Part shown: in pieces, positions 7,122-52,103 of the stretch
How positions within the stretch are numbered: position 1 is the stretch's first letter
Layout: each line of letters starts with the position of its first letter
Source: an uncultured Rickettsiales bacterium
GTDB lineage: Bacteria > Pseudomonadota > Alphaproteobacteria > Rickettsiales > UBA8987
NCBI GenBank assembly: GCA_964588995.1
Contig: CAZPQM010000002.1
Location: forward strand, 155,020 to 219,019
Length of the DNA stretch: 64,000 nt
Direction: 5' to 3'
Program-made: the position numbers and the translations under genes
Notes under the pieces: model-generated
Told to the model about the DNA's origin: nothing
The model's database searches: none
Seen by the model: only the letters and a program-made list of their open reading frames with translations

Positions 7122-7147
7122 AGCCTAATTAATAGCTTAATTAGGCT
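7122..7147. terminator. AT-rich hairpin between convergent pheT and ntrX (possible bidirectional terminator)
   Basis: AGCCTAATTAA-TAGC-TTAATTAGGCT forms an 11-bp perfect stem. There is no clear U-tract, and it overlaps the ntrX stop codon. Confidence 0.35.
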
Positions 7148-8574
7148 GTAGCTAGTTCTTTCTCAGCAGCTTCGGCGGCTTCGGAGTCTTTTTCTTCGAA
7201 GACGTTCAAGGATTTCAGTTTGCGGTGAAGTGCTGAACGTTCCATGCCGATAAAGCTCGCCGTGCGCGAAATGTTCCCGCCGAAACGGTTGATCTGCGCA
7301 GTGAGATATTGCCGCTCGAATACTTCCCGCGCTTCGCGGAGCCGCATCGACAAAATATCCGAATTCGTTTCCGGTGTCATCAGTGCGGGTGTAGTCGAGA
7401 ATACCTCCTGCGGCAGCATTTCCGAGGTTACCGGACCGTCTTCATCTGCAGGGCACATAATCAGCAGCCATTCAATCACGTTGCGGAGCTGGCGGAGATT
7501 ACCCGGCCAGTTATAAGCCTGAAGTGCCGCCATTGCATCGGGTGATAAATCGCGCGGCTGTAGCTTTGAGGTTTCCGCCGCATGAGCGAGCAGGCAATCG
7601 CAGATCAGCGGTATATCTTCGCGGCGTTCTTTAAGAGAAGGCGCTTCAAGCGGCACGACATTGAGCCGGTAATAGAGATCCTCGCGGAAATTACCTTTGC
7701 TGATCTCCTCTTTTATATCCTTATTAGTCGCGGAAATAACGCGCACATCGGCGTGCATTTGCTTACGTCCGCCGACACGTTCGAAATTACCGTCCTGCAG
7801 GAAACGTACGAATTTGCCTTGCGTGGTTGACGGGATGTCCGTAACTTCATCGATATAGAGTGTGCCACCATGCGCCTGTTCGAATACACCGACTTTCCGT
7901 GGGGGCGCGTTTAAATCCTCGCTGTCTTCGGTGCCAAAGAGCTCATGGTCCACCATATCGGTACCGAGCGTGCCGGCATTGAGCACGACAAACGGACCGG
8001 ATTTGCGGTTGGATTTCGCATGGATAGAGCGCGCGATCATTTCCTTGCCACTTCCTGCCGGACCGTTGATGAAGATGCGGCTACCGGTCGGCGCGACACG
8101 CTCGATTGACTGGCGAAGCTGCGTTACGGCAGCCGAGTCGCCGATGAGCAGGTTGATGCTGCCGGTTTTGAGCTTGAGCTCCTGATTTTCCTTTTTGAGT
8201 GACATAGCTTCAATGGCGCGGTCGACCGTATGAACGAGCCGGTCTTCCTTGAATGGCTTTTCGATATAGTCATATGCGCCCATTTTGAGCGAGCTGATCG
8301 CCGTTTCGATATTACCATGCCCACTGATGATAATCACCGGAGTGGACGGGTATTTCCGTTTGACGGTTTCCAATATACCTAAGCCATCCAGCGCACTGTC
8401 TTTCAGCCAGATATCAAGAATCAACGCATCGGGAATCTGTTCGGCAAGCGAAGCAAACGCCTCGTCACTGTTCTTCCCTGACTGCGTTTTATACCCTTCG
8501 TCTTCCAGAATGTCACAGATGAGCTCGCGAATATCTTGCTCATCATCAATTACGAGAACTGTTTTCCCCTGCAT
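7141..8574 (-). CDS. ntrX: NtrX-type response regulator (REC + AAA+ + HTH)
   Basis: 477 aa. Receiver domain (VLVIDDEQDIRE..DIWL), AAA+ (GPAGSGKE), C-terminal Fis-type HTH. It lies downstream of ntrY. Confidence 0.88.
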   Translation of the reverse strand: MQGKTVLVIDDEQDIRELICDILEDEGYKTQSGKNSDEAFASLAEQIPDALILDIWLKDSALDGLGILETVKRKYPSTPVIIISGHGNIETAISSLKMGAYDYIEKPFKEDRLVHTVDRAIEAMSLKKENQELKLKTGSINLLIGDSAAVTQLRQSIERVAPTGSRIFINGPAGSGKEMIARSIHAKSNRKSGPFVVLNAGTLGTDMVDHELFGTEDSEDLNAPPRKVGVFEQAHGGTLYIDEVTDIPSTTQGKFVRFLQDGNFERVGGRKQMHADVRVISATNKDIKEEISKGNFREDLYYRLNVVPLEAPSLKERREDIPLICDCLLAHAAETSKLQPRDLSPDAMAALQAYNWPGNLRQLRNVIEWLLIMCPADEDGPVTSEMLPQEVFSTTPALMTPETNSDILSMRLREAREVFERQYLTAQINRFGGNISRTASFIGMERSALHRKLKSLNVFEEKDSEAAEAAEKELATA

Positions 8575-8676: not shown

Positions 8677-10908
8677 TCAAGCGATGGTTTTCGGCAGGCT
8701 GATGGTTATTGACGCTCCCAGAATGTCTTCCTGATCATTCTCGATATTTTGGATTTTCAGTGTGCCATCATGATCGGCGATCACTTTTTGTACAATGGCG
8801 AGGCCAAGGCCGGTACCGTGGGACTTGGTGGTAACATAAGGCTCAGTTGCGCGTTCGATGACATCCTGCGGGAAGCCGGTGCCGTTATCACTGATATGTA
8901 ATACGACCAGTTCCTCGGTTTCGGTTAAGGTGAGTTGTATATGCCCTTTTTCTTTCCCGCTTTGGGTGGCGAGCGCTTCCTGCACGGACTCCTGCGCGTT
9001 TTTAACCAGATTGACCAGCACCTGACCTATCTGCCCGGCATCGCAGCTGAAGGTGACATCTTCCTCCGGGATATCAAGCTCGATCGTAATCGCTTCATCG
9101 ACGAGGTTTTGCGACTCAGCAGTTTCGCGGATAATCTTACTTACATTTGCAGGTTTTATCTTGGCTTGCGGCATGCGGGCAAACTGCGAAAACTCTTCAA
9201 TAATGTCACCTATATTGCGCACATGCCGATTAATCGTATCGATATAGCGGTCAAAATTCGGCTTCCCTTCATCGATCTGTTTGCCGTATTTACTACGCAG
9301 GCGGTCAAGCGAAAGCTGAATCGGCGTCAGTGGATTTTTGATTTCATGCGCAATGCGTCGAGCCACATCGGACCAGGCGGCATTGCGCTGCGCGGCCACC
9401 AGCTCGGTAATATCGTCAAAGGTTACAACATAACCATCAATGTGGCCTTCAGTTGTTTCCTTGGCGATGCGCACCAGAAAGGTGAGGCGTTGCCCTTTCC
9501 GTCTGAGCCGTAATTCACGTTGATAGATATCGCGCTCCGAGTCGGTGAGTTCGTCGAGAAACTCTGCTATTTCGGGGAAAATACTTTCCAGTGGCGCGCC
9601 TTTAACCACTTCATGCTCAATATGCAAAAGATCGGTTGCTGCGCGGTTGGACAAGGTAATGATGCGGCCTTTATCTAGTGCCAATACACCGGCTGAGACG
9701 TTTGAAAGCACTGCCTCGTTGAGGCGGCGGCGTTCGTCAATCAAGCGGTTGACTTCCACCAGCTCGCTACGTTGTTTTTCCAGCTGGTCGGTCATGCGGT
9801 TGAAAGCGCGGCCCAGCGTGGCGGTTTCATCGTTGAGCGGTCCTTCCGGTACGCGGACATTCAGGTCGCCGCCCTTCACGCGCTCGGTCGCTTTAATCAA
9901 CCGGCTAAGCGGATTAACCAGCTCGCCCGCGAATATCATACCGCCCCAGATCGAAGCAAGCAGGATGAGCAGGGCGACCGCTATAAACACGAACGTAAAT
10001 TGCAATTGCACCTTGCCGATGCCCGAACGTAAGCGTTGATACTCATCGACCGAGCTTTGCGTCAGCTCCATGTGTGAGAGCACTTTTTCATCAATAAACC
10101 GGCCCACCAGCAGGTAGGTATCCTGCAGGGCGGGGTGGGCAAGCCTGATGAGTGCGCGTACCCGGTCGCCGCGCTCGTTGGTGAAGACGACAACATTGCC
10201 CTTAGAGGCTTTCTGAAAATAATCCGCCGGGAGTTGCTCGACCTCGAAGGTGAGGGAGAAGGTCAGATCAGATTTCGCGAGGATATTCTTGGTATCTTTG
10301 AAAATCAATGCTTCACGTAAGGAACGAATGGCCGACTGGGTGGAAATCACCTTCTTAAATTCCGCCGGATTGGCCGCGAGGCGGATGGCCTGATTGTTAA
10401 TATCGTTCGCCATGGCGAGCGCATCGGCGCGGATATTCAGCCGATGCTCCTCCAGATAGCTTTCGGCGACAGCGACGGACTCTTCCAGCGCGGTAGCGAC
10501 GCGATCATCAAACCAGCTTTGGATGCCCTGATTAAAAAAGATCACCGAAAATACGGCCATGAAAATGGTCGGGATCACGGACACCAGACTAAACATAAAG
10601 ATAATGCGACTTTGCAGGCGTGAGCCAACCGCCTGTTTTTTGCGTTCCAGTAGCAGACGAAGCAGGCGGTAGGTAATGAGCGCACCGAGCAGCAGCAACA
10701 GGCACACATTAATCAGCACCAGCCACACCACCGTTTCAGGGTCCGGGCCGAATGGGCTATCCGTTCCGAAAATAACGTAGGCGGTAAAGCTCGCTGCAAT
10801 GATGACCGCGCTAATCAGCGCGCGGTATAGAAATTTACTCCGCCGCCCACCGCGCAGCGCAGTTGCAAATAAATGTAAAGGGGAGGCGGGGGGGTCTAGC
10901 TGCGTCAT
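8677..10908 (-). CDS. ntrY: NtrY-type sensor histidine kinase
   Basis: 743 aa. Multi-TM N-terminus, HAMP, PAS, H-box (RRIAHEIKNPLTPIQL) and HATPase (GTGLGLAIV). Confidence 0.88.
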   Translation of the reverse strand: MTQLDPPASPLHLFATALRGGRRSKFLYRALISAVIIAASFTAYVIFGTDSPFGPDPETVVWLVLINVCLLLLLGALITYRLLRLLLERKKQAVGSRLQSRIIFMFSLVSVIPTIFMAVFSVIFFNQGIQSWFDDRVATALEESVAVAESYLEEHRLNIRADALAMANDINNQAIRLAANPAEFKKVISTQSAIRSLREALIFKDTKNILAKSDLTFSLTFEVEQLPADYFQKASKGNVVVFTNERGDRVRALIRLAHPALQDTYLLVGRFIDEKVLSHMELTQSSVDEYQRLRSGIGKVQLQFTFVFIAVALLILLASIWGGMIFAGELVNPLSRLIKATERVKGGDLNVRVPEGPLNDETATLGRAFNRMTDQLEKQRSELVEVNRLIDERRRLNEAVLSNVSAGVLALDKGRIITLSNRAATDLLHIEHEVVKGAPLESIFPEIAEFLDELTDSERDIYQRELRLRRKGQRLTFLVRIAKETTEGHIDGYVVTFDDITELVAAQRNAAWSDVARRIAHEIKNPLTPIQLSLDRLRSKYGKQIDEGKPNFDRYIDTINRHVRNIGDIIEEFSQFARMPQAKIKPANVSKIIRETAESQNLVDEAITIELDIPEEDVTFSCDAGQIGQVLVNLVKNAQESVQEALATQSGKEKGHIQLTLTETEELVVLHISDNGTGFPQDVIERATEPYVTTKSHGTGLGLAIVQKVIADHDGTLKIQNIENDQEDILGASITISLPKTIA

Positions 10909-10923
10909 GCTTATAATTTAGTA

Positions 10924-12228
10924 CTAATCATCCCCGACTTTGAGCGCGGCAATAAAAGCGGATTGCGGGATTTCCACATTGCCAAAGCTGCGCATCTTTT
11001 TCTTTCCCTTTTTTTGCTTTTCTAGCAGCTTTTTCTTGCGGGATATATCACCGCCATAACATTTCGCGGTTACGTCCTTCCGCATCGCGCTCACCGTCTC
11101 ACGCGCGATGATCTTACCACCGATCGCGGCTTGTATGGCGATTTTGAAGAGCTGGCGCGGGATTAAATCCTTCAGCCGGGCGCAGAGTGCGCGGCCACGC
11201 GGCTCCGCCTGCGAGCGGTGGACAATCATAGAGAGCGCATCAACCGGTTCCTGATTCACCAGAATCGAGACTTTCACCAGATCGCTTTCTTCATAGCCGG
11301 TGATTTCCCAGTCAAAACTGGCATAGCCGGAGGTGACCGATTTCAGCCGGTCGTAAAAGTCAAACACCACCTCGTTGAGTGGTAGTTTATACACCGCCAT
11401 TGCTCGGTTGCCGACATAGGTGAGGTTCTGCTGCTGCCCGCGCTTTTTGGTGCAGAGGTCAAGCACCGCGCCGAGATAGTCATCAGGCACCAGAATCGTT
11501 GCCTTGATCCACGGTTCTTCCATTGACTCGATATGAATCGGGTCGGGCATATCGGCCGGGTTATGCAGTTCTATCGTTTGAGCCGGACTGTCCTTGGTTT
11601 TTTTCATATGCAGTTTGTAAATCACGCTCGGCGCGGTAGTGATCAGGTCGATACCGAACTCACGCTCGAGCCGCTCCTGAATGATTTCCAAATGCAACAG
11701 ACCAAGGAAGCCACAACGAAAGCCGAGGCCAAGTGCGGCGGAAGATTCCTGCTCGAATTCGAAACTTGCATCGTTCAGATTGAGCTTCTCCATCGCATCG
11801 CGCATATCGTCGAACTGGTCGGCATCGGTCGGGAACAGCCCGCAGAATACGACCGGCAAGTTCGGTTTGAAGCCGGGTAGGGGTGTCTCTACCGGGTTGC
11901 TCGCATCGGTGATGGTATCGCCGACTTTGGCATCGCTGACCTGCTTAATCGACGCATTAATATAGCCGATTTCACCGGGGCCAAGCGTCTTAACCGAGGT
12001 TTTTTTCGGGCTGAAAATACCAACATCGTCTATGAGGTATTCCGCGCCGGTATTGACCATGCGCATCTTCATACCTTTTTTGAGCTCACCGGAAAACACG
12101 CGCACCAGCACAATGACACCGAGATAAGTGTCGTACCAGGAATCAACGAGTAGTGCTTTGGTTTGCATATCGCAGGGAGTATAGAGGGTTGGAAGTGGAG
12201 AGTCGAGCAGTTTGAGAGGGGTTGTCAT
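10924..12228 (-). CDS. lepA: elongation factor 4 (LepA), C-terminal fragment (domains II-V + CTD)
   Basis: [21 protein letters not shown]...[23 protein letters not shown]...[23 protein letters not shown] is unmistakable EF4. It has no G domain. The ATG lies inside a repeat terminus. Confidence 0.85.
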
Positions 12229-12507
12229 CGTGAATTTATTCCGGGTATTTTCATCGGCGCAATGGATACGGACAGGCTGTAAGACCCTCGAGTCATATAT
12301 TCGTCATTACGAGCGCAAGCGAAGTAATCTCCTTCTGATATCCTCCTGCCCCAGATTGCTGTGCTCCCCGCTGGTCGCTCACTATGACGGAATATATCGT
12401 CATCGCCCGAGGTGCGAAGCAGCTATAGGGCGATCCATCTCACCATCTACAACCCAGCCTCGCCATAGATTACCTTATAATTCGCATGCGCGCATTCGGG
12501 TAATGAC
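12222..12507. repeat. block of about three family-1 (CGTCAT...ATGACG) palindromic MITE-like units interrupting lepA
   Basis: Unit 12302-12390 (CGTCATTACGAGCG...CACTATGACGG). Unit 12398-12507 (CGTCATCGCCCGAGG...GGGTAATGAC). Partial unit about 12222-12300, which shares the 12-mer CCCGGAATAAAT plus GATGAC with the copy at 52081-52103. Confidence 0.7.
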
Positions 12508-12530
12508 TGGGCGATTGGAATGGCGTCAGG

Positions 12531-13274
12531 TTAGCGCTCGATAGGTGCCGGCAAGCGCTCGACGATGGCTTGCAGTAATTCTGCAATTCCCTGCCCGGTT
12601 TTGGCCGAAACTTCAATCGCATCGCTCGCATCAATGCCGATCACATCCTCGATCTGCGCTTTCACGCGCTCCGGCTCGGCGGAGGGGAGGTCGATCTTAT
12701 TCAGCACGACAATGATTTCATGGTCGTTCTCAATCGCCTGATAGACATTCGCCAGCGTCTGCGCTTCCACCCCTTGTGAGGCATCGACCACCAGCAACGA
12801 ACCTTCACACGCCGCTAAACTGCGGCTGACCTCATAACCGAAATCCACATGGCCGGGTGTGTCCATCAGGTTGAGGATGTACGTGCCGGGTTCGGGGTGC
12901 CCCCCCTTAATCCCCCCCGCAGGCGGGGGGGAGATAGAAGGATTGACTGCAGGCGGGGGGGAGATAGAAAGAGTATCGGATGGCGCTGGGAAGCTATTCT
13001 TTAACTCCTCCTCCCGTTTACGGGGGGAGGTTGGGAGGGGGGCTTCGTTATTGTTTTCAAGGGTGGAGTTATACTCATACTCGAGCCGTACCGTTTGGGA
13101 CTTGATGGTAATCCCGCGCTCGCGCTCAATATCCATATTGTCGAGCACCTGCTCTTTCATTTCGCGGTCAGTCAGGCCGCCGCATTCCTGAATCAGCCGG
13201 TCAGCCAGCGTGCTTTTGCCGTGATCAATATGGGCAATGATGGAAAAATTACGGATGCGTGTGATATCGGTCAT
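12531..13274 (-). CDS. lepA: elongation factor 4 (LepA), N-terminal GTPase-domain fragment with internal insertion
   Basis: [32 protein letters not shown]. It ends LPAPIER*. Its frame differs from the C-terminal fragment (305-nt offset). Confidence 0.85.
12888..13070. repeat. family-2 G/C-run palindromic element inserted in frame in the lepA G domain (copy 2)
   Basis: C7-GCAGGC-G7 hairpin. 21-nt direct repeat GCAGGCGGGGGGGAGATAGAA at 12919-12939 and 12949-12969 (30-nt period). CCTCCCGTTTACGGGGGGAGG hairpin. It translates as ...[52 protein letters not shown]. Confidence 0.7.
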
Positions 13275-13414
13275 AGGGGAAGAGTATAGAGAGGAGGAAG
13301 CGCGTAGTCGAGCGGTTTTAGCATGGCTTAGCCCATAGAAGGGTTAGATCGTACTTGCATTCCCAGTCCGATCGGCGTATGCCACCGAGAGGGTAATCAT
13401 ATGAGCATGGTTTC

Positions 13415-32585: not shown

Positions 32586-32692
32586 CGTCATCCTGAGGGA
32601 GGCGTAGCCGAAGCGAAGGATCTATAATACTAAGTGCTTCACAAATAGAACCTTCGGCTTCGCTTTCAAATGAAAGCTGCGCTCAGAATGAC
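32586..32692. repeat. family-1 palindromic repeat unit
   Basis: CGTCATCCTGAGGGAGGCGTAGCCGAAGCGAAGGATCT ... AGAACCTTCGGCTTCGCT...GCGCTCAGAATGAC, in the hisB/hslV divergent spacer. Confidence 0.7.
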
Positions 32693-32769
32693 AAGGCAAG
32701 TTACCCCTTGATTTGCCATTCTTTATACCCCAAATAGTAGGGAAGTCAAAGTAAAGGAGTGATGAAGGC

Positions 32770-37174: not shown

Positions 37175-38117
37175 ATCTGCGCTGGCGCTTGCCCAAAGTC
37201 AATGGGTGGCCGATCAGCTAGAAGCGCTTAGTAATGACATTACAGCAGAACTTATTGGCATCGAAACACAGGCCGATGAGTCGCGAGGTGGCGTTTATGC
37301 AACGAAGCCGCTTTCGCAGCTAGATGGTAAAAACTTTTTCATTAAAGAGTTGGATGACGCGCTTCTTTCCGGGATCACGCATCTTTCTGTTCATTCGCTT
37401 AAGGATCTAAGCCTTGAACGCCCTGATGCGATTGAACTGGCTGCTATTCCAAAGCGAGAGGACGCGCGGGATGTGGTAATTCTATCCGCTAAGGGAAAAG
37501 CTAAGTTAAGAGCAGGTAAGGCGCTCTCTTTGGGTACATCATCCCCTCGACGGATAGAAAATATCCCTCCTTTGTTGCGTGCTGAATTTGGCTCGCACAT
37601 TGAGGTGAAGGAAATCAGAGGTAATATCACCACACGTATTGGGCGGTTGCATGATTTGGGGAAGCGTTATCTGGACGGTGTTGCATTGGCCTTAGCCGGT
37701 ATAAAACGCCTGTATGCTTCTGAGCAATATCGTAATCAACTGACACCAAAGCTGGCAGGGGTGTTCTTTTTACCTCTGCCGCTGGCAAGTAACCCAACGG
37801 CACCGGGACAGGGTGCGCTCGCAATCGAATGTTTAAAAGAAAATCAGGATATTCTGCTGACACTACAACGCCTGCACTCATTATCTGCGGCGGAAGATAT
37901 TGCTAAAGAGCGTGCTATTCTGGCGAAATATGGCGGCGGGTGTCATCAAGCGTTTGGTGCAAGCCGTATCCGGGGTGGAAAAGCAGGCGAATACGCGTTA
38001 TATATTCGCGGGCGTACCGAATCCGGCCAGATTTTGGACGAGGTGCATGGCAGCTTGCAGGCAACGGAAGATAGCTTGCAGATTTTTGATAGTTTACAAG
38101 CATTAATGTCATCCTGA
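37149..38117 (+). CDS. hemC: hydroxymethylbilane synthase (porphobilinogen deaminase)
   Basis: LKLGTRKSALALAQ..., SVHSLKDL, LGTSSPRR, RGNITTR, APGQGALAIE, GGGCHQAFG. It overlaps hemA by 26 nt. Confidence 0.85.
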   Translation: MHLKLGTRKSALALAQSQWVADQLEALSNDITAELIGIETQADESRGGVYATKPLSQLDGKNFFIKELDDALLSGITHLSVHSLKDLSLERPDAIELAAIPKREDARDVVILSAKGKAKLRAGKALSLGTSSPRRIENIPPLLRAEFGSHIEVKEIRGNITTRIGRLHDLGKRYLDGVALALAGIKRLYASEQYRNQLTPKLAGVFFLPLPLASNPTAPGQGALAIECLKENQDILLTLQRLHSLSAAEDIAKERAILAKYGGGCHQAFGASRIRGGKAGEYALYIRGRTESGQILDEVHGSLQATEDSLQIFDSLQALMSS

Positions 38118-38172
38118 CCGTAGTGAAGGGCTTCTGTCTATTATAGATTCTTTGCTGACGTTCAGAATGACG
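38108..38172. repeat. family-1 palindromic repeat unit supplying the hemC stop codon
   Basis: GTCATCCTGACCGTAGTGAAGGGCTTCT...AGATTCTTTGCTGACGTTCAGAATGACG. The hemC TGA is at 38115-38117. Confidence 0.7.
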
Positions 38173-52015: not shown

Positions 52016-52103
52016 CGTCATCCCCGACTTGTTCGGGGATCCAGAGCCACATGCAGTGTCTGTAACGTTTCGCCTGAGATCCCGGAATAAATCCGGGATG
52101 ACG
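52016..52103. repeat. family-1 palindromic repeat unit
   Basis: CGTCATCCCCGACTTGTTCGGGGATCC...GATCCCGGAATAAATCCGGGATGACG. Confidence 0.75.

Follow-up and report, generated by a model that had tools for sequence, protein, structure and literature searches.

A lepA gene divided at the domain I/II linker around palindromic elements in a Rickettsiales bacterium, and recurrent breaks of the same linker in other Alphaproteobacteria

EF4, the translational GTPase encoded by lepA, is canonically a single-chain protein (TIGR01393; structures 3CB4, 3DEG and 5IMQ). We present an analysis of a lepA locus in which this chain is divided, in a stretch of 64,000 nucleotides (64 kb; hereafter the window) from an uncultured bacterium of the Rickettsiales (assembly GCA_964588995.1, contig CAZPQM010000002.1, positions 155,020 to 219,019 of the forward strand). 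All the domains of the canonical protein and its G1-G5 motifs are present at this locus; in contrast to the canonical protein, they are distributed over two open reading frames (ORFs), here termed the N-half and the C-half, with loss of the covalent link between domains I and II and with an extra insert of 58 residues, predicted to be disordered, in the G domain. The window lepA is a case of gene fission at a domain boundary, and we argue that it probably encodes a functional EF4 made in two pieces.

Split genes are known in Nanoarchaeum equitans and Rickettsia conorii; likewise, phage genes are found split by free-standing homing endonuclease genes, and split-intein genes are exemplified by the cyanobacterial dnaE. 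The locus resembles these gene fissions, and the insertional fission of mitochondrial cox2 (PMC5374615), in its break at a domain boundary, in its two ORFs that together cover the whole protein, and in the dispersal of the pieces in some lineages. It differs from them in that the divided gene codes for a translational GTPase, in that the break falls between the G domain and domain II, in its repeated origin, and in the promoter-like copy ahead of the downstream piece. With the homing-endonuclease splits and the split inteins it shares a conserved gene lying in two pieces around foreign DNA, probably with retention of function; unlike in those systems, the lepA gap has neither an endonuclease gene nor intein motifs, and the intervening DNA varies by lineage. 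A further comparison is offered by the Rickettsia palindromic elements, reportedly described by Ogata et al. in 2000. Like these and like the miniature inverted-repeat transposable elements (MITEs) and repetitive extragenic palindromes (REPs), the elements at lepA are short palindromes with inverted ends that can be translated in frame, as in the G-domain insert of the window and in the linker of a related EF4 (locus L095, below); they differ from the Rickettsia elements in ending in GTCAT/ATGAC and in having broken the frame in the window, and are likened to them by behaviour and not by sequence. To our knowledge, no translational GTPase is known in which the G domain and domain II are encoded apart. 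These two domains form the shared core of all translational GTPases, and the survey that states this makes no mention of a split lepA (PMC4342817); a limited search of the literature likewise found no report of one, which is no proof of absence.

Anatomy of the divided lepA locus

The N-half (12531..13274, minus strand; 247 aa) comprises the EF4 G domain, or domain I, and, as an initial annotation of this stretch made from the sequence alone had read it, ends in LPAPIER followed by a TAA stop codon (12533-12531). In profile searches it corresponds to positions 1-183 of the TIGR01393 lepA profile and it aligns with residues 3-65 and 69-183 of Escherichia coli LepA (3DEG/3CB4), with all five of the G1-G5 motifs intact at invariant alignment columns; taken alone, it scores 297 bits, below the curated cut-off of 533.9. 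The C-half (10924..12168, minus strand; 414 aa from its probable start) comprises domains II, III and V and the LepA-specific C-terminal domain (LepA_C), represented by PF03144, PF14492, PF00679 and PF06421 respectively, and aligns end to end with the Thermus EF4 (5IMQ). Its ORF is open further upstream, up to an ATG at 12228 (434 aa), and in this longer form (12228..10924) covers positions 186-594 of the profile with 613 bits, above the same cut-off. The profile breakpoints of 183 and 186 bear out the earlier placement of the split in the domain I/II linker. The homology also resumes where it had been said to, at about 12159, which is the K of KALLVDSW, in a frame other than that of the N-half (12533-12228 = 305). 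In fused relatives, LP(A/P)P and KALL are 8-9 residues apart, in agreement with the nine or so that the annotation had expected, whereas in the window this distance is about 370 nt, and the gap contains 4-7 stop codons in each of its three frames. No remnants of lepA are visible in the gap. The two halves were rightly described as otherwise intact: their profile coverage is complementary, and there is no internal stop or frameshift in either (661 codons). The locus thus offers two ORFs in different frames, where a canonical EF4 would be one chain of about 600 aa scoring above the curated cut-off over its full length. Its reading frame is disrupted, as in a pseudogene; the signs of relaxed constraint, namely accelerated change, lost motifs and further stops or frameshifts, are absent from it.

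The same junction is found in the Logan assembly of SRR7048223 (locus L001), which agrees with the window over 12005 nt (12928 to 924) without a single mismatch. Because of this identity, the junction is no artefact of a single assembler, the reads underlying the two assemblies being possibly the same; checked in this way, the locus did not resolve into one continuous frame. A scan of metagenomes with a back-translated 13-residue peptide gave no match.

Read in the sense of the gene, the stop codon of the N-half is followed by 22 nt, a palindromic unit of 111 nt (12508-12398), 8 nt, a second unit of 88 nt (12389-12302), about 55 nt without structure, the segment CCCGGAATAAATTCACGATGAC (12247-12222, which holds ATG 12228), 5 nt, a 40-nt segment (12216-12177), 8 nt, and then ATG 12168. 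The first unit (12398..12508, minus strand) runs from AGTCAT to ATGACG in gene sense, and hence from CGTCAT to ATGACT on the forward strand, with one mismatch to the terminal pattern; the second (12302..12389, minus strand) is an exact CGTCAT-N76-ATGACG, and its inverted repeat reaches into the flanking ATATATT. On folding, the ends of both are paired (z -2.9 and -2.2, respectively), and both have the make-up of MITE/REP-like repeats, being short and non-coding with terminal inverted repeats that form a hairpin. No target-site duplication was identified at either. The gap had been described as mostly palindromic units with GTCAT...ATGAC ends, and this holds for these two. A partial third unit, also proposed, is doubtful: the possible remnant at 12222..12247 (minus strand; CCCGGAATAAAT..GATGAC, containing ATG 12228-12226) shares a single 12-mer, CCCGGAATAAAT (BLAST E about 0.35-1), and GATGAC with a hairpin unit elsewhere in the window (52016..52103, plus strand; 88 nt, CGTCAT...ATGACG, z -6.9), and has no fold of its own (z +1.2). 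Units of 88 nt with CGTCAT...ATGACG ends occur exactly twice in the 64 kb (12302-12389 and 52016-52103) against 0.14 expected, and five units have GTCAT...ATGAC ends (at 12302, 12398, 32586, 38107 and 52016). A BLAST search with the gap as query found nothing significant in the remaining sequence of the window, and the units share little except their terminal pentamers and hairpin plan. The family to which the annotation had assigned them therefore stands as a shared architecture and is not definable by sequence similarity within the window. A literature search on the repeat termini returned nothing useful, and Rfam scans, over the whole window and in permissive mode at the locus, detected no family, intron or other, in the gap. 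An AsrC match at 13195-13257 (plus strand), antisense to the 5' coding region of lepA, was set aside as almost certainly a product of chance (22.5 bits, the gathering threshold being 111). Away from lepA, further GTCAT...ATGAC hairpin units lie at 32586-32693, 38107-38172 and 52016-52103. The arms of the units resemble small hairpins, with stems that vary between copies (for instance, CCCCGA/TCGGGG as against CCCGGA/TCCGGG).

The 40-nt segment that closes the gap is a direct repeat of the one preceding the N-half. The two copies (copy 1, 13282..13321; copy 2, 12177..12216; both minus strand) are identical at 31/40 positions, i.e., 22% diverged, and lie at an equal offset, within one base, in the 123-nt stretches that end at the two ATGs; their alignment scores 22 as against 8.3 +/- 1.3 (maximum 19) in 2000 shuffles, and no other position of the 64 kb reaches even 24/40. 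Both are promoter-like: copy 1 has TCGACT (13311-13306), a 17-nt spacer and TATACT (13288-13283), 8 nt before ATG 13274, and copy 2 has the same hexamers (12206-12201 and 12183-12178) with the same spacing, 9 nt before ATG 12168. The hexamer positions carry 0/12 mismatches as against 9/40 overall (P = 0.025), and seven of the nine mismatches fall within the 17-nt spacer. No Shine-Dalgarno sequence precedes ATG 13274, ATG 12228 or ATG 12168. The annotation had the downstream half restart on an ATG supplied by a repeat terminus. Such an ATG does exist, at 12228 within cacgATGACa, and it does open the long ORF; as a functional start it is probably wrong, since it lies upstream of copy 2, which sets its -10-like box 9 nt before the in-frame ATG 12168. 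The 20 extra codons of the longer ORF are copy 2 read as protein, and the start at 12168 gives a product of 414 aa, to be compared with 416-420 aa for the C-halves of other split lepA genes. Hence, the C-half likely begins at ATG 12168 and not at ATG 12228, the one derived from the repeat.

The spacing of these boxes fits a pattern seen across the class. In the 45 nt before the lepA start codons of alphaproteobacterial loci (L007-L094), a CTANA/CTANNW box beginning between -17 and -13 is present at 27/79 distinct loci, as against 5 for a control interval of equal size farther upstream, and a Shine-Dalgarno-like motif is present at 7/81. The box resembles the alphaproteobacterial -10 consensus, GCTANAWC, and the pattern as a whole is that expected of leaderless mRNAs, which are common in Caulobacter and its relatives. 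These observations suggest that the lepA mRNA may commonly be leaderless in the Alphaproteobacteria. The -10-like boxes of the window begin at -15 for the N-half and at -16 for ATG 12168; as both match the class pattern, they are consistent with a leaderless type of expression for the two halves. If lepA is leaderless, a new cistron would need just a -10 box and an ATG, which would make a fission easy to survive. Two routes to copy 2 are plausible, namely a tandem duplication of lepA followed by reciprocal loss, or a repair event at the repeat cluster that copied in a short patch from a site 1.1 kb upstream.

The G domain itself has received an insert of 58 aa (174 nt; 12891..13064, minus strand; residues ~71-128 of the N-half) in the loop of its beta2-beta3 hairpin, which is in frame and free of stops. 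The element that encodes it is palindromic, has G/C-run ends (GCCCCCCC...GGGGGGGC; z -3.2) and includes a tandem duplication of 30 nt (12919-12978). The insert is found in none of the aligned homologues and is predicted by AlphaFold to form a disordered loop (pLDDT below 50). Because the Logan contig ends inside the insert, at 12928, the element would appear to be repeated elsewhere in the genome.

Downstream, only 15 nt separate the stop codon of the C-half from the ntrY start (gene at 8677-10908), and ntrX (7141-8574) comes next.

Two-piece lepA genes in other Alphaproteobacteria

Searches for homologues of each half, followed by inspection of the contigs, showed that at least six further lineages of the Alphaproteobacteria have a lepA in two pieces, with the break in that 8-residue linker. 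In GCA_030429725.1 (loci L002 and L087), the halves are dispersed: the N-half (193 aa) is on contig 43 between apaG-like and EAL genes, and the C-half (420 aa) is on contig 9 between an M23 peptidase gene and tatC; their identities to the window halves are 88%, the closest found for the N-half, and 78%, respectively. In GCA_028279475.1 (L088; L089 in Logan), an N-half of 189 aa and a C-half of 417 aa flank an opposite-strand ORF for a membrane protein of 207 aa, and in two independent samples (L005 and L006) halves of the same two lengths flank an opposite-strand HemolysinCabind gene of 678 aa. The intervening DNA in L045 is an opposite-strand ORF of 517 aa coding for an unknown protein, and in L003 it consists of a DUF433 gene and a gene of 108 aa. 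Finally, in L091 and L092 the N-half overlaps a leuA-like gene and there is no C-half within 5 kb. Every N-half recovered ends in LP(A/P)P plus 3-6 residues and a stop, and every C-half begins with M plus 2-10 residues followed by (L)KALL(V/I)DSW. These ends and starts place all the breaks within one stretch of eight linker residues. A common inserted sequence was sought at the junctions of the different lineages and none was found, and one site-specific mobile element is therefore rejected as the general cause; on the simplest view, lepA is hit by insertions at any point, and both parts stay useful only when the break falls in the linker. Two further candidates, L004 (2597-4400; coverage of only 2.59x) and L090 (5001-6804), were discarded as probable frameshift errors, their N- and C-terminal ORFs overlapping by ~40 nt with no insertion between them. 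In addition, many LepA fragments of about 190-210 aa that consist of the G domain only are found in the databases on long contigs.

Neighbour-joining trees show the split forms scattered among fused ones. L005 is the sister of a fused protein of 608 aa (P0043; 96% identity, bootstrap 100), L045 is the sister of the fused L021 (bootstrap 99), and L003 falls within a clade of fused sequences (bootstrap 100). Since the nearest relatives of these split forms are fused, fission must have occurred independently at least four times. The node that joins the window and GCA_030429725.1 has a bootstrap of 32-33%, and these two may descend from one shared fission or from separate ones. The genes neighbouring lepA differ among the window, L002/L087, L093, L094 and L095, and synteny lends no support to an origin of the split in situ. 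After the split, the pieces have remained under purifying selection in other lineages, where strain pairs differ by synonymous changes only: 6 synonymous and 0 nonsynonymous differences separate the C-halves of L005 and L006, and 7 synonymous and 0 nonsynonymous differences separate the N-halves of L091 and L092.

Units of the kind seen in the gap are absent from the linkers of fused relatives, with the exception of L095 (ENA ERZ27279563). This locus codes for a fused EF4 of 636 aa (P0013), the linker of which reads LPAPS-MSSPESRSDSRAIHSETGTGGKMDAPRIASGNSGHDG-SRALLVDSW, with 37 extra residues encoded by a palindromic GTCAT...ATGAC unit of 107 nt (2016-2122) that is in frame. The unit is 72% identical (75/104) to the one at 12398-12508 of the window, the closest among the window units, with an alignment score of 98 as against 50 +/- 6 (maximum 76) in shuffles, and P0013 groups weakly with the window and GCA_030429725.1. 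The presence of the same repeat subfamily in the same linker of a related bacterium supports the proposal, made in the initial annotation, that the repeats are what broke lepA. Hence, L095 is plausibly an intermediate stage, with the insertions in L095 and the window representing either one inherited event or two separate hits. Together with the other two loci, it suggests a series of in-frame insertion (L095), loss of frame with internal restart (the window) and dispersal of the halves (GCA_030429725.1).

A functional two-piece EF4 and its alternatives

We propose that the 8-residue surface linker joining the G domain to domain II was hit by small palindromic elements of the GTCAT...ATGAC type, and that the resulting loss of the reading frame would amount to an insertional fission of lepA. 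The downstream part would have been rescued by the copy of the lepA promoter-like segment, 9 nt before an ATG that stands two codons ahead of KALLVDSW. The first cistron would then consist of the promoter and the G domain (247 aa, stop at 12531-12533), followed by a repeat-filled spacer of ~310 nt, and the second of the promoter copy, ATG 12168 and domains II-V (414 aa), with ntrY beginning 15 nt later. A working EF4 may then form from the two polypeptides by non-covalent assembly, for which the ribosome is the most likely place. The scheme predicts that the second promoter is transcribed, that 12168 serves as a start of the leaderless type, and that the halves associate and are active.

The rates of change in the two halves are consistent with continued function. 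The mean distance of the C-half to outgroup EF4s is 0.324, as against 0.307-0.348 for fused relatives, and that of the N-half is 0.183, as against 0.202-0.276, making it the slowest in the comparison set; as neither distance is above the range of the fused relatives, neither half shows acceleration. Moreover, if the two promoter-like copies began identical, the 22% divergence between them would imply so long a time that 1.9 kb of coding sequence under no constraint would be very unlikely to have escaped stops and frameshifts.

Several points weigh against a working two-piece EF4. The case for it in this organism rests on sequence. The window lineage is represented by one genome, and because its nearest non-self C-half is about 80% identical, selection after the split can be measured there only indirectly. 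The promoter hexamers match the sigma-70 consensus at 9/12 positions only, the four such sigma-70-like sites in the region are no more than chance would provide, and copy 2 could be kept also, or solely, for ntrY-ntrX. An intact second lepA may lie elsewhere in the genome, the scope here being the 64-kb window. No translational GTPase is known to us whose G domain, as a chain of its own, associates physically with domains II-V. Finally, although lepA matters in certain mutant backgrounds of E. coli (dksA, rsgA, tatB, tonB, tolR and ubiF/G/H, among others), it is dispensable there in the laboratory, where its deletion has no obvious growth defect (PMC4245954), and hence a dead lepA would be tolerated.

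This last point also favors the strongest of the rival explanations, in which palindromic elements inactivated a dispensable lepA and the ORFs are still open for want of elapsed time. Such an insertional pseudogene would account for a gap filled with mobile-looking hairpin units and for the lack of a Shine-Dalgarno sequence before either candidate start of the C-half, and the expression of the halves is itself read from the DNA. The divergence of the promoter-like copies, with 661 codons still free of stops and frameshifts, speaks against it on the assumption that the copies were once the same, as do the absence of acceleration in either half and the in-frame, stop-free nature of the G-domain insert. 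The split is also kept elsewhere with synonymous-only differences, and is kept in one lineage in which the halves are dispersed. Furthermore, the neighbours of lepA in the window (trkA, ntrX, purF and thrS, among others) are intact, and there is therefore no sign of a decaying genome region. The annotation had left the choice between a very recent pseudogene and a two-piece EF4; given the divergence of the copies, the unaccelerated halves and the maintenance of the split in other lineages, we regard the former as unlikely and the latter as the more probable of the two.

Less probable still is that just one fragment works, with the C-half acting as a ribosome or tRNA binder lacking GTPase activity, or being carried on the ntrY-ntrX transcript, and with the other half decaying. 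The 15-nt distance to ntrY would allow the promoter copy to be selected for the sake of ntrYX, and L091/L092 and L002 show one half at the inspected locus. Against this, both halves are intact in the window, GCA_030429725.1, L005, L045 and L088, the N-half of the window is the slowest-evolving in its comparison set, and the synonymous-only changes affect the N-half in one lineage and the C-half in another.

The production of one polypeptide by frameshifting, bypass, an intron or an intein has nothing specific in its favor apart from the translated linker unit of the same subfamily in L095, and, together with sequencing or assembly error, it is highly improbable, given the stops in every frame of the gap, a length of about 360 nt that greatly exceeds the known translational bypasses (some 50 nt in T4 gene 60), the lack of an Rfam match, the want of room for an intein between an N-half tail of 3 aa after LPAP and a C-half head of 2 aa before the ancestral T of TKALL, and the identical independent assembly.

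Implications for EF4 and the Alphaproteobacteria

In its most general form, our proposal is that EF4 can work as two separately encoded polypeptides, a free G domain and domains II-V, held together non-covalently, that this state evolved independently at least four to six times in the Alphaproteobacteria through insertions into the same 8-residue linker, with leaderless lepA mRNA as a possible contributing factor, and that the window, L095 and GCA_030429725.1 represent successive stages of one pathway. We consider this wider claim as an even wager. As an arrangement of genes, the two-piece lepA is reproducible and recurrent, and it would come as a surprise to the translation-factor field; its function as EF4 is a prediction. 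It also has a practical consequence, in that genome annotation is apt to record split lepA loci as pseudogenes or as "partial" GTP-binding proteins. If the halves do work together, the covalent connection between domains I and II would be dispensable for EF4, and the two-piece protein would offer a naturally split GTPase with which to study the communication between the G domain and the remainder of the factor on the ribosome. In that event, the domain I/II linker would also have to be seen as a permissive site that has been used repeatedly by mobile DNA.

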